From the NCBI GenBank assembly GCA_002687015.1, contig NYZB01000189.1:1-55496 (forward strand): a DNA stretch of 55,496 nt. The letters run 5' to 3'. Positions 3,913 through 21,795 of the stretch are shown piece after piece. Below the pieces are notes generated by a model, which did not search any database, was not told where the DNA came from, and saw nothing but the letters and a program-made list of their open reading frames with translations. The translations under genes and the position numbers were made by a program. Position 1 is the stretch's first letter; every line of letters begins with the position of its first letter. This stretch comes from Deltaproteobacteria bacterium. GTDB taxonomy: Bacteria; Myxococcota_A; UBA9160; UBA6930.

Positions 3913-4794
3913 ATGCGCATCGGTCTTCAGGTTCCCAACTTCACCTGGCCCGAGGGAACGGATGCGCTGCCGGGAACGCTCCAGGAGATCGCCCAGATCG
4001 CCGACGACGGGGGCTTCGCGAGCCTCTGGGTCATGGATCACTTCTTCCAGATCCCGCCGGTGGGTCCGGCCGAGACCGACATGCTCGAGGGCTACGGAAC
4101 CCTGCACTGGCTGGCCGGCATCACACGGCGGATCAAGCTCGGCACCCTGGTGACGGGCGTGACCTACCGGCACCCCGGCTTGCTGGTGAAGACCGTGACG
4201 ACGCTGGACGTCCTGTCCAGCGGCCGGGCGATCCTGGGCATCGGCGCTGCGTGGTTCGATCGGGAGCACCACGGGCTGGGTGTCCCCTACCCGCCCCTCG
4301 GCGAGCGCTTCGAGCGCCTGGAGGAGACCCTCCAGATCGCCGAGCAGATGTGGTCCGACGAGGATGGCCCCTTCGACGGGCATCACTACCAGCTGGCCGA
4401 GACCCTCTGCGTTCCCCAACCGGTGCAACGCCCCCGCCCCCCCATCCTGGTCGGTGGGATGGGAGAGCAGAAGACCCTGCGCCTGGTCGCCCTCTACGCG
4501 GATGCCTGCAACCTGTTCACCTACATGGGCATGGATGTGCTGGTCCACAAGCTCGACGTCCTCCGCGACCACTGCGACGCCGTCGAACGCGACTTCGACG
4601 AGATCGAGCGCACCTCCCTCTCGACGATCCAGATGGGCCCCGACCACATGTCGATCCCCGACGTGATCGCCCACTTCCGCGAGCTCTCCGACGCGGGCAT
4701 CCAGCACGCGATCGTGAACCTCCCCGACGTCCACGAGCTCAGCCCCCTCGAGACCCTCGCCAAGGAGGTGATCCCGGCGGTGGGGGGCTTCTAG
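3913..4794 (+). CDS. LLM-class (probably F420-dependent) oxidoreductase
   Basis: WVMDHFFQ, LGTLVTGVTYRHPG, LGIGAAW, PILVGGMGEQKTL; AGGAGG RBS. Confidence 0.9.
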   Translation: MRIGLQVPNFTWPEGTDALPGTLQEIAQIADDGGFASLWVMDHFFQIPPVGPAETDMLEGYGTLHWLAGITRRIKLGTLVTGVTYRHPGLLVKTVTTLDVLSSGRAILGIGAAWFDREHHGLGVPYPPLGERFERLEETLQIAEQMWSDEDGPFDGHHYQLAETLCVPQPVQRPRPPILVGGMGEQKTLRLVALYADACNLFTYMGMDVLVHKLDVLRDHCDAVERDFDEIERTSLSTIQMGPDHMSIPDVIAHFRELSDAGIQHAIVNLPDVHELSPLETLAKEVIPAVGGF

Positions 4795-6281
4795 GAGGGG
4801 CTGTCCGGCCCGCTCTCCCCGAGGATCCTCTGGGCGCACTGCAGCCCGGAGGTCACGACGCCGGTGATGCCGCCGCCCGGCTGGGTCCAGTGCCCGGCCA
4901 GGTAGAGGCCGGGAAGCGGGGCCGCGTGCTCGGGGCGGCCGGGTCCGATCTGGGTGGGGGAGAGCTCGAAGCCGTAGATCGCGCCGGCCTCGTTGCGTGT
5001 GTAGCGCTCCATCGTGCGCGGTGTGGCGCCCTCGCAGAAGCGAAGACCCTCGCGCAGACCGGGCAGCCGGGCCTCGGCCGCGCGAAGCAGGTGCTCGGTC
5101 AGGGCGTCCTTCCGTTCGGGCCAGGGGCCCGCAGCGCTCTCGACCAGGGTGGTCAGCATCACCAGGTGCTCGTCCCGGGGAGCCAGCGAAGGGTCCAGGA
5201 GGCTGGGCACCGTGGCGGTGAACCAGCTCGGCTCGCCCCGACACGCGTCGCGGTAGGCCTCGTCGTGGTCGCAGCTCGAGAAGAAGAAGCTCTCGTGGCC
5301 CAGACCGGAAACGAGCTCTCGTGGAACGGCCAGGTAGTCGACGAAGGCCGAGATCGAGGCACGCATCGCGGAAATGCGTTGGGCATAGCGCCGCGGGAAG
5401 TGCTCTGCGCCCACGAGCTCGAACAGGGTCTGTCGCAGGTCCGCATTCGAGACGACCGTGTCCGCGAGGATCGGTTGTCCGTTCTCGAGGACCACGCCCG
5501 TCACCCGGCCCTCCGTGACCGCGATGCGCCGCACCGGGCTGCGCAGCAGGATCTCTCCGTCGCGCGACTCCACGGCGTGAGCCAGGGCGGCGGCGAGCTG
5601 CTGGAAGCTGCCCTGGCAATAGACGGCTCCGTCCGCGACGTAGGAGAGCAGCATCGTCGACCAGTAGAGGAAGGAGAGGCGGCTCGGCGGCAGGCCCAGG
5701 AAGGGCCACAGCGAGGTCAAGGCCGCCCGCGCCAAGGGGTCGCGCACCTGGGCCTCCAGCACCTGGGAGACCGTCGCACGGCGGTAGCGCAGGAGGGCCG
5801 GGAAGCGTTCGGGCGTGCGCAGGACGTCGGTCAGGGAGCCCAGCTCCGCCGCCATCCCCGTCTCGCGGGCGATGTCCGCGCACTCGGTCACGAAGCTGCG
5901 AATGCCCTTCTCCTGGTCCGGGAAGGCCTCCACGTGGGCCTCGCTGAAGGCCTCCACACCCGAGGGCGCCGCCAGGGTGAGGCCGGGGAGGGAGCTGGTG
6001 TAGAGCGGCTCGACCGGGAGCCAGGTGCAGCGGTTCGCCACGCCCAGTCCCTCGAGCACCCTCTCGATCAGGCCTCGACCCACCAGGTGCACCGCCGAGT
6101 CGAAGAGGTGCCTGCCGCGACGGAAGGCATGCGCGTAGCCACCGACCCGATCGTGCCGCTCGACGACGAGCACCCGGCGGCCCGTCTGGGCGAGCCGCGC
6201 GGCCGCCACCAGCCCACCGATCCCGCTGCCCACGACGATGACGTCGTAGCGTTCGCGCCGCGCCTCGGGGTGGAACCGCAT
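4791..6281 (-). CDS. phytoene desaturase (CrtI)/retinol saturase-like FAD-dependent oxidoreductase
   Basis: GSGIGG dinucleotide-binding motif, ERHDRVGG, ATPRTMERYT, GLYLAGHWTQPGGGITG. Confidence 0.85.
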   Translation of the reverse strand: MRFHPEARRERYDVIVVGSGIGGLVAAARLAQTGRRVLVVERHDRVGGYAHAFRRGRHLFDSAVHLVGRGLIERVLEGLGVANRCTWLPVEPLYTSSLPGLTLAAPSGVEAFSEAHVEAFPDQEKGIRSFVTECADIARETGMAAELGSLTDVLRTPERFPALLRYRRATVSQVLEAQVRDPLARAALTSLWPFLGLPPSRLSFLYWSTMLLSYVADGAVYCQGSFQQLAAALAHAVESRDGEILLRSPVRRIAVTEGRVTGVVLENGQPILADTVVSNADLRQTLFELVGAEHFPRRYAQRISAMRASISAFVDYLAVPRELVSGLGHESFFFSSCDHDEAYRDACRGEPSWFTATVPSLLDPSLAPRDEHLVMLTTLVESAAGPWPERKDALTEHLLRAAEARLPGLREGLRFCEGATPRTMERYTRNEAGAIYGFELSPTQIGPGRPEHAAPLPGLYLAGHWTQPGGGITGVVTSGLQCAQRILGESGPDSPS

Positions 6282-6287
6282 CCCCGC

Positions 6288-7535
6288 CTAGTGGACTTCG
6301 AGCTCTCTGGGATCGTTGCCCGCGAGGCCGTAGCGACACATGAAGGCGACCAGTCCCAGGCTGTACGGATTGGTGGTGCCCTCGCCCGTGAAGATGCGCG
6401 GCATGTGGCGACGGAAATGGAAGTCCATCATCCGGCCCGGCGGGGTCTGGCGCACGTACTCGCCGACCCGGAACAAGGTGAGCAGCCTTCCGTTGTAGTA
6501 GTAGCCCACCACCTGCTGCCAGACGCGGAGGTTGCGTAGCACGAAGCGCTCGTACTTCTGGAAGGCCCGGTCCGTACCCTTGAGGATGGCAGCGGCGAGG
6601 GCCTCGGAGCTCTGAAGTCCGATCAACATGCCGCTCGAGAAGACCGGGTCGACGAATCCGAAGGCATCGCCGACCAGGGACCAGTTCGGACCGCAGCCCC
6701 GCTCGCTGCGCAGCTGGTAGTTCGTGTACCGGATCACGGGAGTCGTGCGTCTCGCGTCCCTTGCCCACTCACGGGTCACGGCGTCGGCACGGAGGTAGGC
6801 GTCGAACTGCTCCTCGGAGCTGTTGCCGAACTTGTGCAGGAACTCGTCGCCCACCACGAGCCCCACGGAGACGCAGTCGGGCAGCGGGATCCGCCAGCCC
6901 CAGCCGTGCTCCAGCCGGTCGGTGTGGACGTTGCCCTCGGTCTCCATGGGCACGCCCTCCATGTGGGCATGCAGGGCGGCGTCCCTGCGATCTCCCACGA
7001 TGGCCGGGAGGTCCAGGAGGTTCGCGATCAGGCGGGAACGGCCGGTCGCATCGACGATCCAGTCCGGGTCGGCGCCGAGGGCGGACCGAGCGGCCTCCCG
7101 GCTCTCCTCGTCGAGTCGCAGGAACTCGCCCTCGCTTGCCTCCAGGCCTACCGAGTGGTGGATCTGCTGGGCGCCGGCGCGCCGTGCGGCCTCCAGGAGG
7201 GTCTCGTCGAAACGATCCCGCGGGACGTTGTAGGAGTAGGTGGTGCTCACCGAGGGGACATCGTGGAACTGGAAGCTCATCCCACCCTTCTGGTCGAAGA
7301 TGAAGGTGGCGCCGCCCTTGAAGCGACTGAAGGAGGCGACCTCCTTCTCGACACCGAGCTTCCGCAGGTGCGGAACGATGGCCGGCAGCAGCGATTCCCC
7401 CACGATGATCGGAGGGCGCTTGCCGCGGGTGAATAGCGCGACGCCGAGGCCCCTTCGGGCCAGGTGGGTGGCCAGCGAAGAGCCGGCGGGCCCCCCACCG
7501 AGGATGGCGACGTTCTCGATCCTCCTCCCGGACAT
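6288..7535 (-). CDS. flavin-dependent halogenase-family NAD(P)/FAD oxidoreductase (halogenase-like 1)
   Basis: GGGPAG, VGESLLP, Lys in FSRFKGG, WGWRIP (WxWxIP), GDAFGFVDPVFSSG; ATG at 7535. Confidence 0.8.
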   Translation of the reverse strand: MSGRRIENVAILGGGPAGSSLATHLARRGLGVALFTRGKRPPIIVGESLLPAIVPHLRKLGVEKEVASFSRFKGGATFIFDQKGGMSFQFHDVPSVSTTYSYNVPRDRFDETLLEAARRAGAQQIHHSVGLEASEGEFLRLDEESREAARSALGADPDWIVDATGRSRLIANLLDLPAIVGDRRDAALHAHMEGVPMETEGNVHTDRLEHGWGWRIPLPDCVSVGLVVGDEFLHKFGNSSEEQFDAYLRADAVTREWARDARRTTPVIRYTNYQLRSERGCGPNWSLVGDAFGFVDPVFSSGMLIGLQSSEALAAAILKGTDRAFQKYERFVLRNLRVWQQVVGYYYNGRLLTLFRVGEYVRQTPPGRMMDFHFRRHMPRIFTGEGTTNPYSLGLVAFMCRYGLAGNDPRELEVH

Positions 7536-7568
7536 CACGCTGAAACGTACGGCACCGTTCGAGGCCTC

Positions 7569-7634
7569 GCCAAAGCTCGTGCCGGAGGAGAGCAAAGCTC
7601 GTGCCGGGCAAGAGCAAAGCTCGTGCCGGAGGGG
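7569..7634 (-). repeat. three tandem 22-bp direct repeats, each a sigma54 -24/-12-like element
   Basis: CAAAGCTCGTGCCGG at 7571, 7593 and 7615; minus strand reads CGGCACG-AGCT-TTGCT (copies 2 and 3) and CGGCACG-AGCT-TTGGC (copy 1), versus consensus TGGCACG-N4-TTGCW. Confidence 0.8.
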
Positions 7635-7658
7635 ACAAACTGCGCGAGACTCCGCCCG

Positions 7659-7919
7659 ATGTCGGAATGGACCCCCGAGAAGTTGACAGCGCGCGTGTTC
7701 GAGATCTTGAGAGACGAGCTGCTCGAGGTGGGAGGGGACTTCTCGCCCCAGTCGAATCTCGTCGATGCGGGTCTCGATTCGCTGGCGGTCACCCAGCTCA
7801 TGCTCTCGATCGAAGAGAGCACCGGGGTCTGGGTCGACGAGAGCCTGCTCACGCCCGAGAACCTCGAGTGCGCCGAGACCCTGGCCGCATGCGTCCATGA
7901 GCAGCTCCAGCAGGGCTGA
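7659..7919 (+). CDS. acyl carrier protein (ACP-A)
   Basis: 86 aa, acidic, phosphopantetheine site AGLDSL. Confidence 0.9.
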   Translation: MSEWTPEKLTARVFEILRDELLEVGGDFSPQSNLVDAGLDSLAVTQLMLSIEESTGVWVDESLLTPENLECAETLAACVHEQLQQG

Positions 7920-9234
7920 GCTCCCCCTCACCGGCGCCGACTGCTTCCTGCGCGCCTTCGACGACGAGGTGCGGCGGCGCTGCGGCGCTTCCCACGCCTC
8001 CCAGCTGGTGCTCCGCCTGGGGGTCGGCTTCGACGCCGGGCGGCTCGCCGCCCTGATGGAACGCGTGGCCGCTGCCCATCCCATCCTGTACGCACCGATC
8101 CGCCGCAGGGGTTTCCGCCCTCCGGCCTATCGCATGGATCGGGCGCGGCCCGAGGCGGCTCCGCGGGTGCGGGTCCATCCGCTCCAGCAGGGCCGGGCCC
8201 TGCCCGAGCTCTTCTTCGAGCGCATGAACGAGCGCTTTCGCGCAACGCGCGGGGAGCTCATGGCCGTGGACGTCGTCCCCCGGGAGGAGGGGCGGACGGA
8301 CATGGCGCTGACCTGGCTGCACATGCTCTTCGACGGTGCGGGCAGCGAGGCCTTCGTCGAATGGCTCGATTCCGTCGACCGCGGGGAACGGAGCGTCACC
8401 GAGCTTCCCCCCGACGATCTGGAAGCGGCCGCACCGGGCATGCCCGAAGGTCTGGGCGCCCGGGAGCGAGGCCGGCGCGCCACCGCCTGGCAGCGATGGA
8501 TGGCGACGATGGCCGACCCCGCACCGCGCTCGCTGGGCGGTCCCCTGCGCACGGTCCCCCAGGCCCTTCGCTACGACCTGACCACCTTCGACCCGGCGGA
8601 GACCGAGGCCATCGTCGCGCGCGCGAAGCAGAGCGCCGGGTTCCTGACGCCCATGCTCTTCTATCTGGCGACCGCGATTCGCGCCCACGACGCCGTGTTC
8701 CGCGCGCGCGGCCTGGCGCCGGGCGCCTACGTCGTGCCGCTCCCGGTGAACCTGCGGCCCAAGGGAAGCGAGCACGCCCTGTTCCGGACCCGCGTCTCGC
8801 TGCTCTGGTTCCGCGTCCTGCCCGAGATCGTGGGCGACTTCGAGGCCCTGGTGGCAGAGCTCAAGGCCCAGAGGGTGGCCGCGATCAAGGCAAAGCAGAT
8901 CGAGAACGGCGCGATCGCCATGGACTACGCGCGCTATGCGCCGATGCGGGTCTACGCTCACATGGCCCGGCGCGCCGCCCGGGGCGAGCTGTGCTCCTTC
9001 TTCTTCGCCTTCACCGGTGAGTTCGCAGGTGGCATCGACCACTTCCTGGGTGCGCCGATCGAGAACGCGTTCCACGCGCCACCGGTGCCGGTATCGCCGG
9101 GCAGCAGTGCGGCGATGAGCCTGCGCGGCGGTCGTTTGAACGTGACCCACGTACAGCAGGCCGGCCTGCTCTCCCGGGAGGAGCGTCAGCTCTTCCAGGA
9201 GACGCTTCGCGCCGACCTGCTCGGCATCGCATGA
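7897..9234 (+). CDS. standalone condensation-domain-like / CoA-dependent acyltransferase fold protein
   Basis: WLHMLFDGAG (HxxxDG), PLPVNLRP, ~445 aa; overlaps the ACP gene. Confidence 0.65.
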   Translation: MSSSSRAELPLTGADCFLRAFDDEVRRRCGASHASQLVLRLGVGFDAGRLAALMERVAAAHPILYAPIRRRGFRPPAYRMDRARPEAAPRVRVHPLQQGRALPELFFERMNERFRATRGELMAVDVVPREEGRTDMALTWLHMLFDGAGSEAFVEWLDSVDRGERSVTELPPDDLEAAAPGMPEGLGARERGRRATAWQRWMATMADPAPRSLGGPLRTVPQALRYDLTTFDPAETEAIVARAKQSAGFLTPMLFYLATAIRAHDAVFRARGLAPGAYVVPLPVNLRPKGSEHALFRTRVSLLWFRVLPEIVGDFEALVAELKAQRVAAIKAKQIENGAIAMDYARYAPMRVYAHMARRAARGELCSFFFAFTGEFAGGIDHFLGAPIENAFHAPPVPVSPGSSAAMSLRGGRLNVTHVQQAGLLSREERQLFQETLRADLLGIA

Positions 9235-9262
9235 CCGGCGCCCGCGACGCGGCGGCCCCCCG

Positions 9263-10534
9263 ATGAGCGCCGACTTCGACGTCGCGGTGATCGGGGGCGG
9301 CTCCGCCGGCGTCGCCGCGGCACTGGCCGCGGCGGGGGAGGGCGCCCAGACCCTCCTGCTCGAGGCCAGCGACCGGCTCGGCGGCAATGCCAGCCTGGCT
9401 CTCGTCCACACGATCTGCGGGCTCTTCGAGCCCGCCGAAGGCGAGGAGCCCGCGCGCTTCGTCCACCCCGGCCTGCCGCGCCGCCTGGCCCTGGCGCTCC
9501 AGGCAGCGGGGGTGGCCGGCGAGGCCGAGCGGGCCGGCCGCGTGCACTACCTGCCGATCGATCCCACGGGCTACGGCGGCTTCCTGGCCGAACGCTGCGC
9601 GGCCCGGGCCGGGCTGCAGTGCCACCTGGGCGTGGCTCTCGAGTCCCTTACCGCGCACGACTCCCATGTGGCCCTGCGCTGGGCGGGAGGCGAGGCCCGC
9701 GCCCGGCTGGTCGTCGACGCCACCGGGGATGGGAACGCCGCCCAGCGGCTCGGCGCCGAACGCGTGATCGAGAGCGGCGACGACCTCCAGTTCCCATCCT
9801 ACATCGTTCACCTCTCGGGAGTGGACGAGGGGGTCTTCGAGGGCTTCGCCCGGCTCGGTGTGAGCACCGCCATGGCCAGGGCGGTGCGCGAGGGCGTGCT
9901 GCCGGAGGGCTGCGACTCGGTGGTCGTTCGCGCCGGGCTCGGCCCCGGCGAGGCGTTCTTGACCCTGGGCCTTCCGAAGCTGCCGGGATCGGACTACGAG
10001 CCCCTCGACCCGGCGTACGCCGCCGAGCTGCAGGCCCGGGCGCGTGCGGCGGCGGAGGCGGTCGTCGCCCACCTGCGCGCGACCCGCGAGCCCTTCGCCC
10101 GCTGCCGGGTGGCCACCTGGCCCGAGCGCGTCGGGCTGCGGGAGACCGCACGGGTTCGGGCGCGCATCGAGCTCGACCGGGACGACATCCTGGCGGGACG
10201 CCGGCGACCGGACGAGGTCGTGCTCTCAGCCTGGCCCATCGAGCTGTGGCGGGACTACCGTCGCGCCCACTTCGAGCTGCCCGAGGGCCCCTGCGGAGTC
10301 CCCCTCGGCTCCCTGCAGTCCGCCAGCCACCCGCGGCTGGCCGTGGCCGGCCGATGCATGGGGGGCAGCCACGAGGCGCTCGGTGCCCTGCGCGTGATCG
10401 GCACGGCCCTCGCGACGGGCGAGGCCGCAGGGATCGCCTGTGCGTTGGCGGCCGACACGGGTTGCGACCTGCTCGCGGTCGAGCCGGCGGCGGTCCGGCA
10501 GCGTATCGTCCTGGCTGGAGAGGGAGGCCCATGA
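9263..10534 (+). CDS. FAD-dependent oxidoreductase (FAD_oxidored/PF12831-like)
   Basis: DVAVIGGGSAG, VVDATGDG, VGLRETARV, VAGRC..HEALGALRVIGTALATGEAAG. Confidence 0.85.
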   Translation: MSADFDVAVIGGGSAGVAAALAAAGEGAQTLLLEASDRLGGNASLALVHTICGLFEPAEGEEPARFVHPGLPRRLALALQAAGVAGEAERAGRVHYLPIDPTGYGGFLAERCAARAGLQCHLGVALESLTAHDSHVALRWAGGEARARLVVDATGDGNAAQRLGAERVIESGDDLQFPSYIVHLSGVDEGVFEGFARLGVSTAMARAVREGVLPEGCDSVVVRAGLGPGEAFLTLGLPKLPGSDYEPLDPAYAAELQARARAAAEAVVAHLRATREPFARCRVATWPERVGLRETARVRARIELDRDDILAGRRRPDEVVLSAWPIELWRDYRRAHFELPEGPCGVPLGSLQSASHPRLAVAGRCMGGSHEALGALRVIGTALATGEAAGIACALAADTGCDLLAVEPAAVRQRIVLAGEGGP

Positions 10535-10568
10535 GCGCCGCGCTGCGCGCAACGGGAGAGCCCGGACG

Positions 10569-12029
10569 ATGACGGAGACCGTGCTCGACGAGATCCGCCG
10601 GCGCGCCGACGAGCGGCCGGATGCCGCCGCCTGGTGCGCCGACCTGGGCGAGGGGCGGTCGAAGGCCGGGAGCTACGCGGAGCTGCTGGGCCGCGTGGAG
10701 GAGCTGGCGGCGGGGCTGCGCGATGCCGCCCTTCCCGAGTTCGACGGCGAGGGCGCCCGCCTCGGGCTGGTGGCGCCCCAGGGCGTGGACTTCGTCGAGA
10801 ACGCGCTCGCCATCCTCGCGGTGGGCGGCTGCCTCGTGCCGATCCCCGACGACACCGCCTCGACCGCCCAGGAGGCCATCGCCGAGCGGGCCCGGCTCCA
10901 CGGTCTCGTGAGGGTCGGGCGGGATGGCACCCGGGAGGTCACGGTCCTTCCGGAGCGGGGCGCGGTCGACGGCGCCGGCGACGCGGAGTTCCGGCGGCTG
11001 CGCCCCGCCTACCTGCGCTTCACCTCGGGTACGACCCATCGGCGCAAGGGCGTGATCATCGGCCACGCTCGCATCCTCGAGCGGCTCGCGGCGGCCAACC
11101 GCGGGCTCGGGATCGGTCCCGGTGATCGGGTGCTCTGGCTCCTGCCGATGGCGCACCACTTCGTCGTCTCGATCCTCCTCTATCTCCGCTACGGCGCGAC
11201 CATCCTTCTACCCAAGGGTTCCCTGGCCCGCGACGTCCTGGCCTTCGCGGCCCGGGAGGGTGCGACCGTCTTCTATGCCTCGCCCTATCACTACAACCTG
11301 ATGGCCAAGGACCAGGGTGAGACCCGGCTCGAGAGTGTGCGGCTCGCGATCTCCACGGCCGAGGGCCTGCGCGCCGAGATCGCCGATCGCTTCGCTCTCC
11401 GTTTCGGTCTTCCGCTTCGCCAGGCCCTGGGGATCATCGAGGTCGGCTTGCCCGTGATCGACCTCGAGGATCCGGAGCCCGGGGCCCTGGGACATCCGCT
11501 GCCCGACTACGACGTATGGCTGCGCGGCGAAGACGGGGCCCCCGTGAAGACCTCCGACGAGGGCCACACCGGGGAGATCTGCATTCGCGGCCCAGGCCTC
11601 TTCGACGCCTACCTCGATCCCTGGAGCCCCGCCCGGGAGCTGCTCGAGCCGGACGGCTTTCGCACCGGCGACCAGGGCTGGTTCGACGCGAAGGGCCGCT
11701 TGCACCTGGCCGGGCGTCGTAGCAACCGGATCAACATGGCCGGGATGAAGTTCTTCAGCGAGGAGGTCGAGGCGGTCCTCGACCAGGTCCCCGGGGTCCG
11801 GCGCAGCCGCGTCTCGGCAAGATCCCACCCCCACCTGGGCGAGATCCCGGTCGCCGAGCTCGAGCTCGAGGCCGGCACCCCCGAGCTGGCCAGGAAGGAG
11901 CTGGCCGCCCACTGCCGCGCCCAGCTCGAGGCCTACAAGGTCCCGCGCGAATTCCGGGTGGTGGAGGCGCTGCCTCTCACGGCCACCGGCAAGCTCGAAC
12001 GGTCGCCCGGGTTCACGGAGGAACGCTGA
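10569..12029 (+). CDS. class I adenylate-forming enzyme (acyl-CoA/acyl-ACP ligase)
   Basis: RFTSGTTHRRKG (A3), GEICIRGP, FRTGD, LPLTATGKL (A10 Lys). Confidence 0.9.
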   Translation: MTETVLDEIRRRADERPDAAAWCADLGEGRSKAGSYAELLGRVEELAAGLRDAALPEFDGEGARLGLVAPQGVDFVENALAILAVGGCLVPIPDDTASTAQEAIAERARLHGLVRVGRDGTREVTVLPERGAVDGAGDAEFRRLRPAYLRFTSGTTHRRKGVIIGHARILERLAAANRGLGIGPGDRVLWLLPMAHHFVVSILLYLRYGATILLPKGSLARDVLAFAAREGATVFYASPYHYNLMAKDQGETRLESVRLAISTAEGLRAEIADRFALRFGLPLRQALGIIEVGLPVIDLEDPEPGALGHPLPDYDVWLRGEDGAPVKTSDEGHTGEICIRGPGLFDAYLDPWSPARELLEPDGFRTGDQGWFDAKGRLHLAGRRSNRINMAGMKFFSEEVEAVLDQVPGVRRSRVSARSHPHLGEIPVAELELEAGTPELARKELAAHCRAQLEAYKVPREFRVVEALPLTATGKLERSPGFTEER

Positions 12030-12495
12030 AGCCGAGCCAGCGGGGCACGCGCGCGCAGTACGCCTCGTAGGGGGCCCCAAAGCGCCGGCGCAGCCCCGGC
12101 TCCTCGACCCGGACCACGAAGAGGTGGGCCAGGCCGAAGAACGCGACGGCGTAGGCGACGAGGGCCAGGGAGACAAAGAGCCACGCCTCGGCCAGGATGA
12201 TCAGGGTGTAGAGCAGGTACATCGGGTTGCGGCTGCGCTCGTACACGCCGCCCGCGACCAGGTTGCGGGGCGGATCGAAGGGCGCGGGTGTGCCGCGGCC
12301 CCGCCGGACGAACTGGATGATCTGGATCAGGAGGACCGCCAGGAGCCCCGCCGTCAGGGCCTTCGCAGGCCACGGGGAGACCTGCCAACCCGCGGCGAAG
12401 CCCCACCCCGCAAGTCGCAGGACGCACCAGGGGAACGCGACGAAGAACCACCCGGCGAACCAGACCATGACGCCGACGGTTCGAAGGGCGATCAA
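12013..12495 (-). CDS. isoprenylcysteine carboxylmethyltransferase (ICMT/PEMT-like) membrane methyltransferase
   Basis: GRGTPAPFDPP, GGVYERSRNPMY, EEPGLRRRFGAPYEAYCARVPRW; hydrophobic. Confidence 0.85.
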   Translation of the reverse strand: MIALRTVGVMVWFAGWFFVAFPWCVLRLAGWGFAAGWQVSPWPAKALTAGLLAVLLIQIIQFVRRGRGTPAPFDPPRNLVAGGVYERSRNPMYLLYTLIILAEAWLFVSLALVAYAVAFFGLAHLFVVRVEEPGLRRRFGAPYEAYCARVPRWLGFSVPP

Positions 12496-12589: not shown

Positions 12590-14116
12590 TCACGATCCGA
12601 AGCCGAAGCCCCGGGTCCGCTGGAGCTCCAGGACCTGTGCGATGTCCCGGTCCTGGCGCCGGTCTTCCGAGAGCGTCGGCACGGCCTTGCGCAGGATGCG
12701 GCGCAGGCTCCGTGCCCGGCTGCCCGGCGTCTGGCCCTCCCGCTCTCGCAGGTCCACCGCCTGGCAGACCGCCAGGGTCCCGATCGCCGCCACGGTCTCG
12801 GTCAGCTCGGCGATGCGCAGGGCGTCGCGAGCCGCGATCGTCCCCATGCTCACCTTGTCCTGGTTGTGGGACTCGGTGCTGCGGCTGAAGGCCGCGGCCG
12901 GCATGGTCAGTTTCTGGGCCTCGGCGGTGAGAGCCGACGCGCTGATCTGCATGGCCTTGAAGCCGTGGTGCACCACGGCGCCCGCGCCCTGCTGGGCCAC
13001 GAGGTTCTCGGGGAGATCCCCACTGGTGACGGGGCTGCACAGCAGCGCGAGCTGGCGGTCGAGCAGGTCGGCCACGCTGGCCGTCGCCGCCTTGAGCGTG
13101 TCGAGGGCGAGGGCCACGTGGCCTCCGTAGAAGTTGCCCCCGTGCAGCACGTCGCCCGCCTCCGGGTCGACCAGGGGATTGTCGTTGACCCCGTTGATTT
13201 CGATCTCGAGGATCTGGCGCGTGAAGCTCGCCGCGTCGAGCAGGGCACCGACGACGTGGGGCGCGCAGCGGATCGAGTAGCGGTCCTGGAGCCGCGCCAC
13301 GTCGCGGGGAGCATCCCGGCTCAGGTCCTCGCGGATCCACCGGGCCGCGAGGCGACTGCCCGGATGGGGCTTCCAGGCGAAGATTCGATCGTCGAAGTGC
13401 GCGGGGTTGCCGTGCGTGACCTCGCTCGCGATGGCCGTGACCGCGCAGGCGAGCCTGGCGATCTGCATGCTGCGATCCCACGCGAGGGCGCCCAGCGCGG
13501 CCATCACGCTGGTGCCGTTCATGAGCGCCAGGCTCTCCTTGGGCCGCAACGGGAGGGGCTCGAGGCCGATCTCCCGCCAGGCCTCCGTCGCCGGCAGGAC
13601 GCGGCCCGCCAGGCTCACCTCGCGCTCCCCTACGAGGGCAGCGGCCAGGTAGGAGAGGGGGGTCAGGTCGCCGCTGGCGCCCACCGAGCCCTCGGCCGGA
13701 ATCCGGGGCAGGAGACGATGGTCGAGGGCGACGCAGAGCCGCTCGAGCAGCGCCTCGCTGCCCCCCGAGTGCCCCTGGGCGAGCGAGGCGAGGCGAACCA
13801 CCAGCACGGCGGCGGCCTCTTCGTCCTCGAGGATGCGACCCGTGCCGCAGCCGTGGAAGCGCAGCAGCTGGTGGGGCAGCTCGGCCTGGAGCTCGGCCGG
13901 GATGGAGTTTCCGACCGAGGCTCCGACTCCGGTGGTGACGCCGTAGACCGGTTCGCCCTCTCGGAGCCGCGCTTCGATGGCCTCCTGGCCCGCGCGAAGC
14001 CTCGCCCGATAGTCGGCGTCGGCCCACAGCTCGGCCCGTCGCTCGCCCCGCGCCAGCGCCAGGACGTCGGGAAGCATGAGCGGCGCCCGCCCCAGCTCGC
14101 AGCGATCGGTCGTCAC
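12590..14116 (-). CDS. MIO-dependent aromatic amino acid ammonia-lyase (HAL/PAL/TAL family)
   Basis: YGVTTGVG, GSVGASGDLTPL (ASG MIO triad), KESLALMNGT, QDRYSIRC, NDNP, HNQDKVSMG. Confidence 0.95.
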   Translation of the reverse strand: MTTDRCELGRAPLMLPDVLALARGERRAELWADADYRARLRAGQEAIEARLREGEPVYGVTTGVGASVGNSIPAELQAELPHQLLRFHGCGTGRILEDEEAAAVLVVRLASLAQGHSGGSEALLERLCVALDHRLLPRIPAEGSVGASGDLTPLSYLAAALVGEREVSLAGRVLPATEAWREIGLEPLPLRPKESLALMNGTSVMAALGALAWDRSMQIARLACAVTAIASEVTHGNPAHFDDRIFAWKPHPGSRLAARWIREDLSRDAPRDVARLQDRYSIRCAPHVVGALLDAASFTRQILEIEINGVNDNPLVDPEAGDVLHGGNFYGGHVALALDTLKAATASVADLLDRQLALLCSPVTSGDLPENLVAQQGAGAVVHHGFKAMQISASALTAEAQKLTMPAAAFSRSTESHNQDKVSMGTIAARDALRIAELTETVAAIGTLAVCQAVDLREREGQTPGSRARSLRRILRKAVPTLSEDRRQDRDIAQVLELQRTRGFGFGS

Positions 14117-14217
14117 CCGTGGAATCTAACCTCGATCCCGGATGCTGTCCGCGGCCCGGCTCACCGCCTCCGCCGGAGGCCACGATCGAGGGTGCGCAGT
14201 GGTATCGTCTCCTCCTG

Positions 14218-14988
14218 GTGGCAGATCCGACCTACAAGGCTCCCCGGCCCTGGCGGCAGCTCGTCGCCGGGCTGACCTTCCTCTACTACGGGGTGGGGCT
14301 CGCGGCGTTGGCGGTCTGGCTGCTGGTGCGCGAGAAGCTGGTCGGACACGACGTCTTCGCGGCCCAACGGCTCGTCCAGCGCGCCTATGCGAGCTTCATC
14401 GCCGTGGCGGCCTGGCTGGGGTCGATCCGGCTCACGACCCGCGGGGCCGAGGCCCTCGCGGGCCCGGGGCCCCGGCTGGTCGTCGCCAATCACCCCTCCC
14501 TGATCGACTCCGCCCTGGTCGTCCGCCATCTGCCCCAGGCCGACAGCTTCGTGAGCCCCGAGTGGGCCACCCGGCCCCTGTTCCGAACGCTGGTCGCCGC
14601 CGTCGAGGCCCTGCCGAGCGACGCGGGCGCTGCGGCGGTCGATGCCGCCGTGGCCCGGTTGCGCGCGGGCCGCAGCGTCGTGATGTTTCCGGAAGGGACC
14701 CGGTCGCCGGCAGCGGGCCTGGGTCGCTTCCACCGGGGAGCCGCCCATGTGGCGCTCGCCAGTGGCTGCGACCTGCTTCCCGTGGTGATCCGGATCGACC
14801 CCCCGACGACGAGAAAGGGCGAGCGCTGGTATGACGTCCCCGAGAAGGTCCCCGAGGTCGAGGTGAGGGTCATGCCGCCGCTCTCGCCCGGCAAGGTGCT
14901 CGATGGAAGCGAGAGCCCCATGCTCGCCGCGCGCAAGGTGAACGCGGCGCTGCGGGATATCTACGAGAAGGTGTTGGATCTTGGATAG
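14218..14988 (+). CDS. lysophospholipid (PlsC-like) acyltransferase, ApeD-like
   Basis: ANHPSLID (HxxxxD), FPEGTRS; start at GTG 14218 chosen from the upstream TATCGT box (uncertain). Confidence 0.85.
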   Translation: MADPTYKAPRPWRQLVAGLTFLYYGVGLAALAVWLLVREKLVGHDVFAAQRLVQRAYASFIAVAAWLGSIRLTTRGAEALAGPGPRLVVANHPSLIDSALVVRHLPQADSFVSPEWATRPLFRTLVAAVEALPSDAGAAAVDAAVARLRAGRSVVMFPEGTRSPAAGLGRFHRGAAHVALASGCDLLPVVIRIDPPTTRKGERWYDVPEKVPEVEVRVMPPLSPGKVLDGSESPMLAARKVNAALRDIYEKVLDLG

Positions 14989-15244
14989 CGCGACGCTGGC
15001 TCTGGAGATCAAGAAGATCATCGTCGAGTGCCTGGCCCTCGAGGACATCGCCCCCGAGGAGATCGAAACCGAGGCCCCCCTCTTCGTCGAGGGCCTGGGT
15101 CTCGATTCGATCGACGCCCTCGAGCTGGCCATGGCCCTCGAGGAGAAGTACGGCGTGACCGTGGGCGACGACCCGGACGAGAACCAGAAGATCTTCTTCT
15201 CGGTCGAGAGTCTGGCCCGCTTCGTCACGGAGCAGCGCGGCTGA
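14981..15244 (+). CDS. acyl carrier protein, ApeE-like
   Basis: PLFVEGLGLDSIDALEL. Confidence 0.93.
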   Translation: MDSATLALEIKKIIVECLALEDIAPEEIETEAPLFVEGLGLDSIDALELAMALEEKYGVTVGDDPDENQKIFFSVESLARFVTEQRG

Positions 15245-15251
15245 GCGCCCC

Positions 15252-15497
15252 GTGCTGTCCCGAGCGGAGGTCTTCGAGAAGGTGCGGGGCGTGCTCCAGA
15301 GCGAGTTCGAGTTCTCGGAGGAGGAGGTGCACCCCGACGCCCACCTGGTCGACGATCTCGATCTCGACAGCGTCGACGCGGTGGCGCTGATGGTGCGCCT
15401 GGAGGAAGAGACGGGTCTCGTCTTGTCCGAAGAGGATCTGCGTTCGCTGGTCACCGTGCAGAGCGTCGTCGACGCGGTGGCCAGTCGGCTCGCCTGA
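15252..15497 (+). CDS. acyl carrier protein, ApeF-like
   Basis: DDLDLDSVDAV; tandem ACP pair typical of APE clusters. Confidence 0.93.
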   Translation: MLSRAEVFEKVRGVLQSEFEFSEEEVHPDAHLVDDLDLDSVDAVALMVRLEEETGLVLSEEDLRSLVTVQSVVDAVASRLA

Positions 15498-15500
15498 ATC

Positions 15501-17231
15501 GTGCCGACCCTCCTCCTGGCCGCCCTGTTCCGCGAACCCCGCCCCCCTGACATGGCGGTCGCCTGGGATCGAGAGGGCGTGCGCACCTGGCGCGAGTTCA
15601 GCGAGCACGCCGCCGGGTTGGCCGGGCAGCTCGGTCGCGGCACGAGCTGGGTCGTCGACTGCGCCAGCAGCTACGCCTTCGCGGTGGCGCTCTTCGCGAC
15701 GGCGCGCGCAGGGGCGCTGGCGTGGGTTCCGCCGAACCGACAGCCCGGCACCGTCGGCGATCTGGCGGCGCGCTCGGACGGCCTGCTCTCGGACGGCTCG
15801 GAGGAGCCGGGCGCGTTGCACCCCCTCGCCCTCTCGGCAAAGGCCGCGGCATGTGACCTGCCGGAGGACCGGGCCGCACTGCATCTGTTCACGTCGGGGA
15901 CCACGGGCAGCGCCAAGGAGATCCCCAAGACCTGGCGCCAGCTCGACGAGGTGGCCGAGCTCGAACGCTGCTTCGGCTCGGGCCTGCCCGCTTCGACACG
16001 GGTCTTCTCGACGGCGCCGCACCACCACCTCTACGGTCTCCTGTTCCGCGTCCTCTGGCCCCTCGCCAGCGGCAGGCCCTTCCAGGCCGAAACGCTCCTC
16101 CACGTCGAGGAGCTGCTGCCGCGCATCGCCGAGGGGCCTCCGGCGATGCTGGCCGCGACCCCGGCGCACCTGCGACGGATCACCCAGCGCGAGGAGCTCG
16201 CGCGGTTGCGTGGCCACCTGGTTCGGGTCTTCTCGTCGGGCGGGCCGCTTCCTGCCTCGACCGCCGCGGCGGTCGAGATCGCGTTGGGCGAGCCGCCGGT
16301 GGAGGTGTTCGGCTCGACGGAGAGCGGCGGAGTGGCCCTGCGAAGCCAGCGGTCGGGCGAGCCGCCGCCCTCCTGGCGCCCGTTGGCCCCGGTGCGGGTT
16401 CGCCGCGACGCCGAGACGGGCTGTCTGCGCGTGACCTCCCCGTGGGTGAGCCTCGGCGCCGAGCAGGCGGATGGTCAGCTCGAGCTCGAGATGGGTGACC
16501 GGGTGGAGATCGCGGCGAATGGGGAGTTCCGCCTGCTCGGTCGGGCGGACCGCGTCGTCAAGATCGGGGAGAAGCGGGTCGTCCTGCTGGACATGGAGAG
16601 CCGCCTGCTCGAGCATGGCTTCGTGGACGAGGTGGCGTTGGTCGATGTCGAGCGCGGCGGGGACGCGCGGGTGGGGGCCCTCGTCGTGCTCTCGGCCGAA
16701 GGCCGGGCCGTCCACGAGCGCGAGGGGAGGCGCGAGCTCGGTCGCGCACTCGGAGATCATCTGGCGCCCCACTGGGATCGCGTGGTGCTGCCCCGGATCT
16801 GGCGCGTGGTGCCGGCCCTTCCGCGGGACGAGAGGGGCAAGCTGCCGCGGGAGGCCCTGCTGGCGGAGCTGGCCGAGAGGCCGCGCAGCCCGCTGGTCCT
16901 CGGGGAGGAGCGGGCAGGAGACGTCCTTTGCCGAGAGCTCCGGGTGCCGGAGGATCTCGCGCAGCTGGAGGGTCACTTCCCCGACCTGCCGGTGGTTCCG
17001 GGCGTAGCCCAGGTGGGCTGGGCCCTGGCGGCGGCCGAGGTGTTGCTCGGACGCCCATTGCAGGCACACGGCGTCGAAGCGTTGAAGTTCAAGGAGCCGC
17101 TCCGGCCCGGGACGTCCCTGTCGCTCGAGGTGGAGGCGAACCCGGACGATCGCGCCAAGGGGCGCTTCCGCTTCCGGTGCACCCGGGAGGGGCGCGAGCT
17201 CTCCTCGGGGCGCGTGAAGGTCGAGCCGTGA
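15501..17231 (+). CDS. AMP-binding acyl-ACP ligase fused to a C-terminal FabA/FabZ-like dehydratase (ApeH-ApeI-like)
   Basis: FTSGTTGSAK, EVFGSTESGG, GRADRVVKIGEKR, then GHFPDLPVVPGVAQV hotdog motif. Confidence 0.88.
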   Translation: MPTLLLAALFREPRPPDMAVAWDREGVRTWREFSEHAAGLAGQLGRGTSWVVDCASSYAFAVALFATARAGALAWVPPNRQPGTVGDLAARSDGLLSDGSEEPGALHPLALSAKAAACDLPEDRAALHLFTSGTTGSAKEIPKTWRQLDEVAELERCFGSGLPASTRVFSTAPHHHLYGLLFRVLWPLASGRPFQAETLLHVEELLPRIAEGPPAMLAATPAHLRRITQREELARLRGHLVRVFSSGGPLPASTAAAVEIALGEPPVEVFGSTESGGVALRSQRSGEPPPSWRPLAPVRVRRDAETGCLRVTSPWVSLGAEQADGQLELEMGDRVEIAANGEFRLLGRADRVVKIGEKRVVLLDMESRLLEHGFVDEVALVDVERGGDARVGALVVLSAEGRAVHEREGRRELGRALGDHLAPHWDRVVLPRIWRVVPALPRDERGKLPREALLAELAERPRSPLVLGEERAGDVLCRELRVPEDLAQLEGHFPDLPVVPGVAQVGWALAAAEVLLGRPLQAHGVEALKFKEPLRPGTSLSLEVEANPDDRAKGRFRFRCTREGRELSSGRVKVEP

Positions 17232-17980
17232 AGGCCGCGCTGCTGATCCCGGTCTACCAGCATGGGGAGCCGGTGGCGCGGGTGCTCGAGGATCTGGCCG
17301 GGCTCGGGATGACCTGCTTCATGATCGACGACGGCAGCGACGGCGAGAACCGCGAGCGGCTCCTGAAGCTCGCCGTCGAGCACCCCTTCGTCTCCCTCCA
17401 TCGGCTCCCCGCCAACGCGGGCAAGGGGGTGGCCCTGCGCACCGGTTTCCGGCTGGCGGCCCACCGAGGCTACACGCATGTCGTGCACCTCGATGCCGAC
17501 GGGCAGCACTGCTGCGCCGACGTTCCGCGCTTCCTGGCGGCGATGGAGGCGCACCCCGAGGCCCTGGTCCTGGGGACCCCGCTCTTCGACGATTCGGTTC
17601 CCCGTCCCCGGCTGGCTTTCCGGCAGCTCTCCCGGGGCCTGGTCTGGCTGGCCACGCTCTCCTTTGCCGTGGAGGATCCCCTGGTGGGCTTTCGGGGGGT
17701 GCCGCTCGCTCCGACCCTGGCGCTGCTGGACCGGGTGAAGACGGGAGACCACATGGAGTTCGAGCCCGAGCTCGCGGTGCGCCTGGTATGGGCCGGCACG
17801 CCCATGGTGAACCTGCCGACCCGTGTGGTGTACCCGGTCGGCGGCCATTCCAACTTCGACGTGCTCTGGGACGATCTGCGCCTGGCCTGGCTGTACCTGC
17901 GCCTCGCCTTCGGCATGTTCCTGCGCAGTCCACTCCTCCTGTGGCGAAGGCCCGTCGCGATCCCGGCCGAGGGCCCGTGA
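17228..17980 (+). CDS. glycosyltransferase family 2 (ApeJ N-terminal half-like)
   Basis: LIPVY, IDDGS, NAGKG, HLDADGQH; GTGA coupling to the upstream gene. Confidence 0.88.
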   Translation: MKAALLIPVYQHGEPVARVLEDLAGLGMTCFMIDDGSDGENRERLLKLAVEHPFVSLHRLPANAGKGVALRTGFRLAAHRGYTHVVHLDADGQHCCADVPRFLAAMEAHPEALVLGTPLFDDSVPRPRLAFRQLSRGLVWLATLSFAVEDPLVGFRGVPLAPTLALLDRVKTGDHMEFEPELAVRLVWAGTPMVNLPTRVVYPVGGHSNFDVLWDDLRLAWLYLRLAFGMFLRSPLLLWRRPVAIPAEGP

Positions 17981-18963
17981 GCTCCGCCGCCCCCGGCACG
18001 CCCGCCGAGCCCGATGCGAAGCGATCGCGGGACCGCGACGCACCCTGGGCGCGGACGGCGGAGGCGGGGACCTCCATCGCCATCCGGATCATGAGGGGGC
18101 TGTACCGCCTGCTCGGCCGGCGTCTCTCCAGCGCGCTCATGTGGCCCATCGCCCTCTACTTCACGGTCGTCGGCCGGGAGCACCGCCGAGCCCATCGGCG
18201 CTACATCGAGGCCCTGCGCTCGACGCCCCGGGGCCGAGACGTCGGGCCGCCTCACTTCGGCTCCGCGCTGGCGCACGTCCACGCCTTCGCCATCAACCTC
18301 TTCGATCGCATGGTGGCCTGGGGTGGCGGTCTCGACGACATCCGCTTCATCCACCAGGGCAGTGAGCACCTGTTCCGGCTCGCCGAGGAGAAGCGGGGCG
18401 CCATCCTGATCGGCTCCCATCTCGGCAGCTTCGACATGATGCGGCTGCTCGCCGGGCGCCACGGTCTCGTGGTGAACGTGCTCATGTTCACGAAGAACGC
18501 CGAGCGGATCACCGCCTTCCTGCACAACCTGGATCCCGAGAGCCGGGTGCGGGTGATCGCACTCGATCCCTCCAGCATGCGCACCGCCTTCGAGATCAAG
18601 CAGTGCCTCGACCGCGGCGAATTCGTGGGGATCCTGGGCGACCGCATCTGGCCCGCCGACCGGGCCCATCGCGAGCTGCTGCCCTTCTTCGGGCAGCCCG
18701 CGCCCTTCTCCCTGCGTCCCTTCCTCCTGGCCGGCGTCCTGGGGGCGCCCCTGCTCTTTGCCGTCTGCGTGCGCCGCGGGCCATCGACCTACGAGGCGGC
18801 GGTCGAGGTCCTGCATCCGGGCGGCCAGGTCCCTCGGGCCGCGCGCGAGGCCCGCGCTCGCGAATGGCTGCAAGGCTACGTGGCGAGCCTCGAACACTGG
18901 TGCGGCGAGGAGCCCCTGCAGTGGTTCAACTTCTACGACACCTGGCAGGTGGAGGACGCCTGA
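17977..18963 (+). CDS. LpxL/LpxP-family acyltransferase (ApeJ C-terminal half-like)
   Basis: GSHLGSFD (HxxxxD), ILGDR, PLQWFNFYDTW; GTGA coupling. Confidence 0.85.
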   Translation: MSSAAPGTPAEPDAKRSRDRDAPWARTAEAGTSIAIRIMRGLYRLLGRRLSSALMWPIALYFTVVGREHRRAHRRYIEALRSTPRGRDVGPPHFGSALAHVHAFAINLFDRMVAWGGGLDDIRFIHQGSEHLFRLAEEKRGAILIGSHLGSFDMMRLLAGRHGLVVNVLMFTKNAERITAFLHNLDPESRVRVIALDPSSMRTAFEIKQCLDRGEFVGILGDRIWPADRAHRELLPFFGQPAPFSLRPFLLAGVLGAPLLFAVCVRRGPSTYEAAVEVLHPGGQVPRAAREARAREWLQGYVASLEHWCGEEPLQWFNFYDTWQVEDA

Positions 18964-18966
18964 GCC

Positions 18967-19449
18967 GTGGACTTCCCCCCGCTCGCGAGCGTGGTGCCCC
19001 ACGCCCCGCCGATGCTGCTCCTGGATCGGGTGCTGGCGCACACCGCGACCGAGACCACCTGTGCCCTGCGCCCCGCGGAGAGCGCGCTCTTCGCCGACGG
19101 CGAGGGCCGCATCCCCGCCTACCTGAGCCTCGAGTGGATGGCCCAGTGCATCGCCGCGCACGGAGGCCTCCACGGCCACGCCGAGGGCTCGCCCCCGCGC
19201 CCGGGTCTGTTCCTCGGCACGCGCCGGGCTCGCCTGCCCGGCCGGAGCTTCCCGCCCGAAGGGGAGCTCCTGGTGTCGGCCCGCTGGCACCACGGTCGGG
19301 GGGTGGGAGCTCACGCGTTCGCCTGTACGCTGCGGGCACCCGGAGAGTCCGGGAGCCTCGCGGAGGGCCTGCTCAACGTGCTGATCTTCGAGAGCCTCGA
19401 CGCGCTGCAAGGGCCTGCGTCCGGGGCCGGCGATCCGACGTGGCGCTGA
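18967..19449 (+). CDS. hotdog-fold 3-hydroxyacyl-ACP dehydratase, ApeP-like
   Basis: VPHAPPMLLLDRV, LEWMAQCIAA, GLFLGTR. Confidence 0.85.
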   Translation: MDFPPLASVVPHAPPMLLLDRVLAHTATETTCALRPAESALFADGEGRIPAYLSLEWMAQCIAAHGGLHGHAEGSPPRPGLFLGTRRARLPGRSFPPEGELLVSARWHHGRGVGAHAFACTLRAPGESGSLAEGLLNVLIFESLDALQGPASGAGDPTWR

Positions 19450-21771: not shown

Positions 21772-21795
21772 CGCCGGTGGCGTTTCCCCGATCCC

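Follow-up and report, generated by a model that had tools for sequence, protein, structure and literature searches.

A compact gene cassette built around a stand-alone condensation-fold protein was found at positions 7659-12029 of contig NYZB01000189.1 (assembly GCA_002687015.1), from an uncultured Deltaproteobacteria bacterium placed in Myxococcota_A. The contig is 55,496 nucleotides long and was analysed as a whole; it is referred to here as the window, and belongs to an 82%-complete assembly. On the plus strand, the cassette encodes an acyl carrier protein (ACP-A), the condensation-fold protein (hereafter the C protein), a flavoprotein and an adenylating ligase. A halogenase-like gene (Hal1) and a second flavoprotein gene (AmOx) are transcribed divergently from it. 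We consider it roughly an even call that the cassette is a load, tailor and transfer branch that acts in trans within an aryl-polyene-type lipid pathway. The genes and features of the cassette and its borders are as follows.

4791-6281, minus strand: CrtI-like flavoprotein "AmOx", co-transcribed with and downstream of Hal1 (PF01593, E 1.5e-29)
6288-7535, minus strand: flavin-dependent halogenase-like Hal1, divergent from ACP-A (PF04820, E 5.8e-21, above cut-off)
7571-7635, plus strand: three direct 22-bp repeats with the core CAAAGCTCGTGCCGG, within the 123 bp that separate the divergent Hal1 and ACP-A genes
7659-7919, plus strand: ACP-A, stand-alone carrier protein of 86 aa (PF00550, E 6.3e-8)
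7897-9234, plus strand: stand-alone condensation-fold HxxxDG protein (C protein) of 445 aa (predicted model, Foldseek, VIA)
9263-10534, plus strand: FAD-dependent oxidoreductase (flavoprotein) of 423 aa (PF12831, E 2.8e-63)
10569-12029, plus strand: ANL-superfamily acyl/aryl-acid adenylating ligase of 486 aa (PF00501, E 1.6e-46; PF13193, E 6.4e-15)
12013-12495, minus strand: PEMT/ICMT-family membrane methyltransferase, convergent with the ligase (PF04191, E 2.7e-9)

In the proposed branch, the ligase would adenylate a carboxylic acid and attach it as a thioester to the ACP-A phosphopantetheine arm. The acid would not be an alpha-amino acid and would most likely be hydroxy-aromatic, for example tyrosine-derived 4-coumarate or hydroxybenzoate. 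Hal1 would halogenate the acyl group while it is tethered, and the PF12831 flavoprotein, together with the CrtI-like flavoprotein in Myxococcota, would tailor the tethered group by redox chemistry. The C protein would dock ACP-A, and His142 of its L-H-x3-D-G motif would move the acyl group onto a hydroxyl or an amine, with a lipid head group, a lyso-lipid or an aryl-polyene unit as candidate acceptors. The final lipid would thereby gain a further substituent, linked as an ester or an amide. We infer every chemical step, as well as the identities of the acid and the acceptor, from sequences and predicted structures.

Since the G+C content of the window is about 70%, long spurious open reading frames (ORFs) are common in it, and the gene map was drawn from third-position G+C (GC3) and domain scans. 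GC3 was 0.87-0.90 for the three large frames of the cassette. The ATG of the C protein sits 23 nt within the ACP-A gene, which amounts to a translational overlap. A minus-strand ORF of 598 codons at 6288-8084, running over ACP-A, was rejected as an extension artefact because the halogenase domain in it begins only at residue ~190 and ATG 7535 leads to a normal protein of 415 aa; we therefore place the start of Hal1 at 7535. The ligase most likely starts at ATG 10569, which is preceded by GGGAGAG and gives 486 aa. The initial annotation had set this border at the upstream GTG 10440, a start that was judged unlikely against the ATG with its box and was replaced. With the revised start, the gap between the C gene and the flavoprotein gene is 28 nt, and that between the flavoprotein and ligase genes 34 nt. 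The four plus-strand genes are as tightly packed as had been described, an arrangement that recurs in most of 80 genome loci, and the four domain assignments made earlier (carrier, condensation-like protein, PF12831 flavoprotein and AMP ligase) hold by Pfam and by fold.

The C protein belongs to a large family, with at least 627 relatives in a word-based search, all unnamed or annotated as "hypothetical", and at least 674 clusters at 50% identity in an exhaustive search. Its motif reads W-L-H142-M-L-F-D146-G147. H142, D146 and G147 were invariant in 30 close relatives, and the His, the Asp and the following Gly were also invariant in 34 sequences that included relatives at 20-43% identity. A profile of the 30 relatives matched the C domain 8xjz of a nonribosomal peptide synthetase (NRPS) at E 1.5e-4, and reached E 0.11 against the PapA5-annotated chain 8s6l (AzeD). 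The AlphaFold (AF2) model had a pLDDT of 93 and a pTM of 0.92. Foldseek against the PDB returned 320 matches at E≤0.001 with this model, and all matches listed were members of the C family, headed by AzeD (8s6l; E 1.3e-21, TM 0.76-0.78). According to VIA, residues 1-445 aligned with C, epimerization (E) and cyclization (Cy) domains, PapA5, WS/DGAT and BAHD structures at Z scores from 34.2 down to 19. AzeD scored 34.2 (rmsd 3.4 Å over 415 aligned residues, 15% identity), CDA-C1 28.3, other NRPS C and Cy domains 27.5-24.8, PapA5 25.1 and WS/DGAT 24.4. Predicted-structure neighbours in the Atlas were PapA5-family acyltransferases (TM 0.82). We regard the assignment of the predicted structure to the two-lobed, chloramphenicol acetyltransferase (CAT)-like condensation fold as safe. 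The initial annotation had named this fold beforehand as a point on which its proposal would stand or fall, and the fold was present by AF2, Foldseek and VIA; all the groups proposed for comparison (C domains, PapA5 and WS/DGAT) matched, with AzeD the closest.

AzeD, of the azetidomonamide pathway of P. aeruginosa, is described as the founder of a clade of stand-alone C proteins that carry out dehydration; in AzeD, Pro-His replaces His-His and is tied to the mechanism (10.64898/2026.07.17.738954). According to the accessible part of that preprint, the first His varies in only about one third of the clade, and the dehydratase role of other stand-alone C proteins is left open (10.64898/2026.07.17.738954). 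Given that variation in only about a third of the clade, the Leu-His pair of the window's protein does not exclude membership. Hence the C protein could be an AzeD-like dehydratase, or another non-condensing catalyst, acting on a hydroxylated intermediate tethered to ACP-A; it might extend conjugation after flavoprotein oxidation and leave off-loading to PlsC-type or LpxL-like enzymes. We consider this explanation unlikely, though it fares best among the rivals. AzeD leads the next structural match by a clear margin, but at an identity of only 15% and with a profile E value of only 0.11. Both proteins stand alone and, as far as the accessible part of the preprint describes AzeD, both are without the first His, yet the pair is L-H here and not the P-H tied to the AzeD mechanism. 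The same text leaves room for further dehydratases among stand-alone C proteins (10.64898/2026.07.17.738954), and other acyltransferase genes always lie near the cassette; on the other hand, members of the C-protein family are coupled to a carrier protein or fused with one, and the cluster already has two FabA-type dehydratases, one ApeI-like and one ApeP-like. The role of transferase that had been given to the HxxxDG enzyme thus stands in part: the fold and the catalytic His-Asp-Gly are there, while the transfer chemistry is only inferred because the nearest solved relative is a dehydratase.

Three observations speak for a tie of ACP-A to the C protein, and with it for the proposed branch: the translational overlap, the ACP-C fusions and a predicted complex. 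ACP-A carries a GLDSL site, its Asp40-Ser41 pair was invariant in 34 orthologues, and Ser41 is the probable phosphopantetheine site. An N-terminal PP-binding domain was present in all seven of the longer C-protein relatives (542-584 aa), which came from Verrucomicrobiota assemblies. Further, 98% of the 92 members of an Atlas cluster with TM 0.92 to the window's C protein had a PP-binding domain, and additional Atlas clusters of C-protein kin were found in Planctomycetota. The predicted ACP-A:C complex, run with both alignments, had a median score of 0.63 (runs of 0.52, 0.63 and 0.71) versus 0.00 for the best of three controls; among solved complexes, 116 of 157 reached the mark of 0.63, and among mismatched pairs, 2 of 215. 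The runs had at least 97% of contacts in common and a partner pLDDT of at least 85, with Ser41 of the ACP contacting residues 250-253 in the C-terminal lobe of the C protein. As solved complexes of peptidyl carrier proteins with C domains exist, the score may only reflect likeness to them. The prediction agrees with the fusions.

A pattern scan gave 80 genome loci, one genome per species, two of them without an adequate C match. All came from metagenome-assembled genomes labelled Myxococcota, Deltaproteobacteria, Binatia and others. Partners were located by tblastn with the window's proteins (E≤1e-8, at least 50% coverage) under fixed distance rules, and each denominator below is the number of loci that extend far enough to show the partner.

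ACP directly upstream of the C protein: 66 of 73 loci
Flavoprotein directly downstream of the C protein: 61 of 66 loci
Ligase within 3.6 kb: 56 of 59 loci
Hal1 within 2.1 kb upstream of the C protein: 60 of 66 loci
AmOx (CrtI-like) within 4 kb upstream of the C protein: 56 of 64 loci

Three loci (L009, L059 and L066) have the same genes in shuffled order. Metagenome contigs were scanned as well, with a profile built from relatives 26-35% identical to the C protein, and this gave 33 more distant loci. Among these, an ACP match lay directly upstream in 15, a ligase downstream in 15 and a flavoprotein between in 12, with a halogenase match in 11; the ligase came straight after the C gene in L103, L104, L106, L109 and L110. 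As the same order is found in most of the 80 loci and in many of the 33 distant ones, the arrangement goes beyond chance. The conserved partners point to a unit of six genes in two divergent operons. The genes of the four-gene unit initially drawn at 7659-12029 are thus upheld and its limits are not, since Hal1 and AmOx travel along; Hal1, earlier offered as a possible tailoring partner, belongs to the cassette by its adjacency.

Pfam scans of 83 ORFs from nine distant loci found a patatin-like phospholipase in five loci. LpxL-like and PlsC-type acyltransferases, polysaccharide deacetylase, LPG_synthase_TM and GT2 were other recurrent neighbours, and MMPL and LolA genes, ketosynthases (KS) and FabA-type dehydratases were found as well. 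By predicted gene content, the distant loci are the same kind of lipid and pigment cluster. Individual loci showed departures of their own. In one genome of the same order (G063, contig C67, 5201-6613), the C gene matches in two pieces, 5201-5476 and 5549-6613, which suggests a frameshift or an assembly error. An IS200-like transposase (PF01797) lies between the C gene and the ligase of L089 (9562-10626), at the usual place of the flavoprotein. On a single metagenome contig (L111, 2-8507), a tandem cassette was seen, in which C protein, flavoprotein, ligase and halogenase are followed by ACP, C protein and a second halogenase.

Downstream of the cassette, the window holds genes of an aryl-polyene-type cluster.

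12590-14116, minus strand: aromatic amino-acid ammonia-lyase (PF00221, E 2.6e-150)
14119-23750, plus strand: aryl-polyene core, with a PlsC-type acyltransferase, two ACPs, an LpxL-like acyltransferase, an ApeP-like dehydratase and a membrane protein
14119-23750, plus strand: second halogenase, within the core
15501-17231: ApeH-like AMP-binding ligase fused to an ApeI-like dehydratase in one ORF of 576 aa
22515-23750, plus strand: KS
31875-32741, minus strand: PF13723 gene, chain-length-factor (CLF)-like
32600-34300, minus strand: second KS

The best NCBIfam match of the ammonia-lyase was the BagA/FevW tyrosine ammonia-lyase (TAL) model (E 1.4e-128, below cut-off), and it is probably a TAL. In L045-L047, it is on the same strand as, and behind, Hal1 and AmOx. 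It might supply the acid of the cassette, and the cassette might stand in for dialkylresorcinol esterification, as the initial annotation suggested. The ApeH-ApeI fusion is kept in many related loci, and the best NCBIfam match of its ligase part was 4-coumarate-CoA ligase (TIGR02372, E 5.2e-27, below cut-off). For loci of at least 15 kb, 34 of 48 matched the window's aryl-polyene genes or ammonia-lyase by tblastn. Pfam scans of six of the remaining 14 identified LpxL-like, LolA-like or MMPL genes in L051, L069 and L073, and a polysaccharide deacetylase and a second halogenase in L039; L049 and L075 had none of these genes within 10 kb.

In a single sample of 301 genomes, drawn evenly from the phylum, the C protein (E≤1e-20) was present in 21 and an ApeP-like gene in 73; 20 of the 21 had the two together, often on the same contig at a distance of 10-17 kb. 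In 53 genomes, ApeP occurred and the C protein did not, which makes the cassette an accessory of one subtype of aryl-polyene cluster. The initial annotation had put the cassette outside the canonical ape core, and these counts (73 of 301 genomes with ApeP, only 21 with the C protein) agree with it. The fusion of the core ligase with ApeI was not found (E≤1e-20) in five genomes of the same family that are without the C protein; three of the five have an ApeP-like gene, so their clusters are another subtype.

This setting bears on a second explanation, which we hold less probable still: that ACP-A carries a halogenated aryl starter unit, which the C protein trans-thioesterifies to a KS or to the elongation ACPs. 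The ligase of the cassette was the only ligase in the fetched distant flanks, near KS and FabA-type genes, but these flanks span only 8 kb and a second ligase may lie beyond them. The association with a halogenase fits a phenolic starter, and TAL adjoins the cassette, in line with Hal1 and AmOx in L045-L047. Nevertheless, the window has its own ApeH-like, coumarate-ligase-like ligase fused to ApeI, with two more ACPs, and the 53 ApeP genomes noted above manage without the C protein. We know of no C-fold enzyme that loads ketosynthases, which also counts against a starter-unit role. The absence of the fusion from the five genomes without the C protein speaks neither for nor against it.

Two further regions of the window are noted here. 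Between the KS groups, 23791-31859 holds an exporter (two MacB/FtsX genes, ABC and HlyD) and a trio of FAA-hydrolase, LigB-type extradiol dioxygenase and IclR genes. At 49420-51630, a frame of 736 codons has sulfotransferase (PF13469, PF00685) and class I/II aminotransferase domains and may represent a fusion or two separate genes; next to it lies a luciferase-like monooxygenase.

For the loading step of the proposed branch, the ligase has the motifs TSGTT..KG, TGD, GRR.N.I and GK..R, with K475 invariant. PF00501 and PF13193 were both above cut-off, and the adenylation core motifs are complete, including the A10 lysine. Single-domain scores were 211 bits for an oxalate-CoA ligase, 205 for a feruloyl-CoA synthetase and about 121 for each adenylation (A) domain of LgrA; a 246-bit match to LgrA, taken at first sight as NRPS affinity, was rejected because it adds up two A domains that score about 120 bits apiece. 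The model for NRPS amino-acid adenylation (TIGR01733) scored 142 bits against a cut-off of 317. The best NCBIfam matches were fatty-acid-CoA ligase models (PRK06187, E 7.5e-52), none of which reached its cut-off. H196-H197 is invariant, and H197 aligns with the Asp of the FD motif of LgrA; in amino-acid A domains, the alpha-amino group is bound by an Asp, residue 235 of GrsA. Given the His at the Asp position and the higher scores of CoA ligases, the ligase is, on its sequence, an acyl/aryl-CoA-ligase-like acid ligase and not an amino-acid A domain. The "NRPS-like" logic of adenylation, thiolation and condensation that had been proposed survives in the assignment of an AMP ligase, a carrier and a C fold, and is overstated for the ligase, where a His stands for the Asp of amino-acid adenylation domains.

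Hal1 has GGGPAG at residue 13, K73, GESL and, at residue 212, WGWRIP (WxWxIP), all invariant in 31 orthologues; by its position, K73 presumably corresponds to the catalytic Lys. Its nearest solved relatives were FasV (9.6e-37) and ChlB4 (4.2e-34), and CndH, Mpy16, PltA and Bmp2 were also among them. ChlB4, PltA, Mpy16 and Bmp2 are halogenases that act on carrier-tethered aromatic acyl groups, and this is the main reason for favouring an aromatic acid on ACP-A. The model of the PF12831 flavoprotein had a pLDDT of 96, and its VIA matches included FixC and a geranylgeranyl-reductase-like protein, at Z scores of 22.4 and 21.7. By sequence, only N-terminal Rossmann matches were found for it in the PDB, and its names in the Atlas were only "FAD-dependent oxidoreductase". 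For AmOx, the nearest solved structure was a phytoene desaturase (4dgk, E 3.8e-24).

A third explanation, which overlaps the preferred one in mechanism and which we find more doubtful than the starter-unit role, differs in the acid: an aliphatic acid, fatty or short dicarboxylic, would be loaded on ACP-A, desaturated or reduced by the flavoproteins, and esterified to a lipid alcohol, the C protein then acting like PapA5 or WS/DGAT. Fatty-acid-CoA ligases head the NCBIfam matches of the ligase, although all of these stay below the model cut-offs, and oxalate- and malonyl-CoA ligases are among its solved matches. The FixC and geranylgeranyl-reductase-like folds of the flavoprotein, the CrtI-like AmOx, the structural likeness of the C protein to PapA5 and WS/DGAT, and the patatin-like, PlsC-type and LpxL-like lipid genes nearby would all suit such a substrate. 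However, the constant company of a flavin-dependent halogenase would, from the class of enzyme, argue for an electron-rich aromatic. In addition, fatty acyl-AMP ligases have a typical insertion, for which a ligase of 486 aa would have no room. We rate lowest of all, and regard as improbable, a ketosynthase-independent route in which loading, flavoprotein oxidation and halogenation are completed by an AzeD-like finish through dehydration or a transfer-dehydration hybrid.

Several observations weigh against the load, tailor and transfer branch. The window's C protein had no match in Pfam or NCBIfam (none to PF00668 at E≤0.1), and among eight distant relatives of similar length, four reached 22-26 bits with PF00668, below the cut-off of 30.6; by sequence, the protein misses the Pfam Condensation model and these four relatives fall short of it. 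The first His of HHxxxDG is Leu141, so that the motif is LHxxxDG, and AzeD, the nearest solved structure, is a dehydratase and not a transferase according to the accessible part of its description. The family is known here from sequences and predicted structures alone. In the predicted complex, the donor side could not be told from the acceptor side at the ACP docking site. The ligase gave no substrate call, as its best matches span oxalate, malonate, feruloyl, benzoate and fatty-acid ligases, and the 4-coumarate-like ligase of the core could be the true user of the lyase product. Neither TAL nor AmOx was found by tblastn in the 33 distant loci. Foldseek and VIA matched the PF12831 flavoprotein to generic two-domain flavoprotein folds only, and it is missing from the five distant loci with the ligase directly behind the C gene, where it is dispensable. 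Finally, the nearby PlsC-type and LpxL-like acyltransferases could do the off-loading.

Some observations concern the borders and the expression of the cassette. The methyltransferase gene overlaps the 3' end of the ligase gene by 17 nt. A PEMT/ICMT methyltransferase comes after the ligase in many related loci, and may for this reason methylate the product. In the intergenic region, CAAAGCTCGTGCCGG occurs in three exact copies at 22-bp spacing, versus 0.22 expected in the window. None of the 121 fetched loci had a copy, and the repeat is thus not conserved; either an operator specific to the strain or slippage may account for it. In a DNase-treated metatranscriptome, contig pieces were identical to several stretches of the cassette (8364-8532 for the C gene, 9560-9842 for the flavoprotein gene, 10567-10874 and 11571-11756 for the ligase gene), and contigs near-identical to Hal1 and the ammonia-lyase were also present. 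This presence in one RNA library, in which DNA carry-over is possible, weakly suggests that the cassette is transcribed; several parts of the window had no cover in this single run, which is uninformative either way.

Few types of bacterial biosynthetic cluster are as widespread as the aryl-polyene clusters, and their full-length products have been established in very few cases. The aryl-polyene lipids of Xenorhabdus are one such example in the accessible part of the work (10.1101/2020.12.19.423268). The cassette marks a large subtype of these clusters that has a carrier-protein branch in addition and is, up to now, uncultured-only or unstudied. No literature on it was found in open-access PMC and bioRxiv, in line with the earlier remark that no characterised product is known for it. 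Neither the C-protein family, which Pfam and NCBIfam have no model for, nor its partnership with a PF12831 flavoprotein and a halogenase, nor the aryl-polyene setting in four phyla was found described in the open-access literature searched. In its accessible part, the AzeD report indicates that stand-alone C proteins are capable of chemistry beyond condensation (10.64898/2026.07.17.738954). Solving the reaction of the C protein would widen the known range of the condensation fold and name hundreds of "hypothetical proteins". It would also predict a new substituent, probably halogenated, on the outer-membrane pigment lipids of four phyla. If the ketosynthase-independent route were true, it would establish a functionally new clade within the condensation superfamily and point to unrecognised halogenated aryl-polyene lipids in Myxococcota, Binatia, Verrucomicrobiota and Planctomycetota.

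Compared with known systems, the window resembles the ape cluster (apeB-R of E. coli CFT073 and Xenorhabdus doucetiae), as far as the accessible source describes it, in its two ACPs, ApeH-like ligase and ApeI- and ApeP-like dehydratases, and also in its KS, CLF-like gene and PlsC- and LpxL-type acyltransferases. The accessible part of that source lists KS, ACP, CLF, dehydratase (DH), ketoreductase (KR) and a transporter as the core (10.1101/2020.12.19.423268). This core list is without a C-fold protein, a third ACP or a PF12831 flavoprotein. Further, the window has a MacB/HlyD exporter instead, and no KR, MMPL or LolA was seen among its scanned ORFs. With AzeD (PDB 8s6l), the C protein shares a stand-alone length of ~430-445 aa, the two-lobed C fold and the second His, Asp and Gly, a likeness drawn from structure and profile comparison. 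It differs in having Leu-His where AzeD has Pro-His, and in being coupled or fused to an ACP and travelling with a ligase and a halogenase, whereas the reaction of AzeD is a dehydration.

In the chlorothricin (ChlB2/ChlB4/ChlB6) and pyoluteorin (PltF/PltL/PltE/PltA) cassettes, a discrete ligase or synthase, a carrier and a halogenase acting on a tethered aromatic group are followed by transfer, and the nearest solved relatives of Hal1 include ChlB4 and PltA from these systems. Unlike the window, their transfer enzymes are KSIII-like or of other folds rather than C-fold, and their oxidase is of the acyl-CoA-dehydrogenase type rather than PF12831; the ligase here, in turn, is not an amino-acid A domain. 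PapA5 (1q9j) and WS/DGAT (6chj) are similar in fold at the Z scores given above. We take the logic of the PapA5/FadD28/Mas system of M. tuberculosis to be that proposed here, with an acyl-AMP ligase that loads a carrier and a C-fold enzyme that transfers the acyl group to an alcohol. The C protein departs from PapA5 and WS/DGAT in the missing first His, and the Pfam scan gave no match to PF16911 (PapA_C) or PF06974 (WS_DGAT_C). Moreover, the carrier here is a small discrete ACP and not a polyketide synthase, the companions are a halogenase and flavoproteins, and the setting is that of Gram-negative aryl-polyene lipid clusters. By analogy with the PapA5- and ChlB-type systems, a discrete ligase, a carrier, tailoring enzymes and a C-fold off-loader would together follow a known logic.

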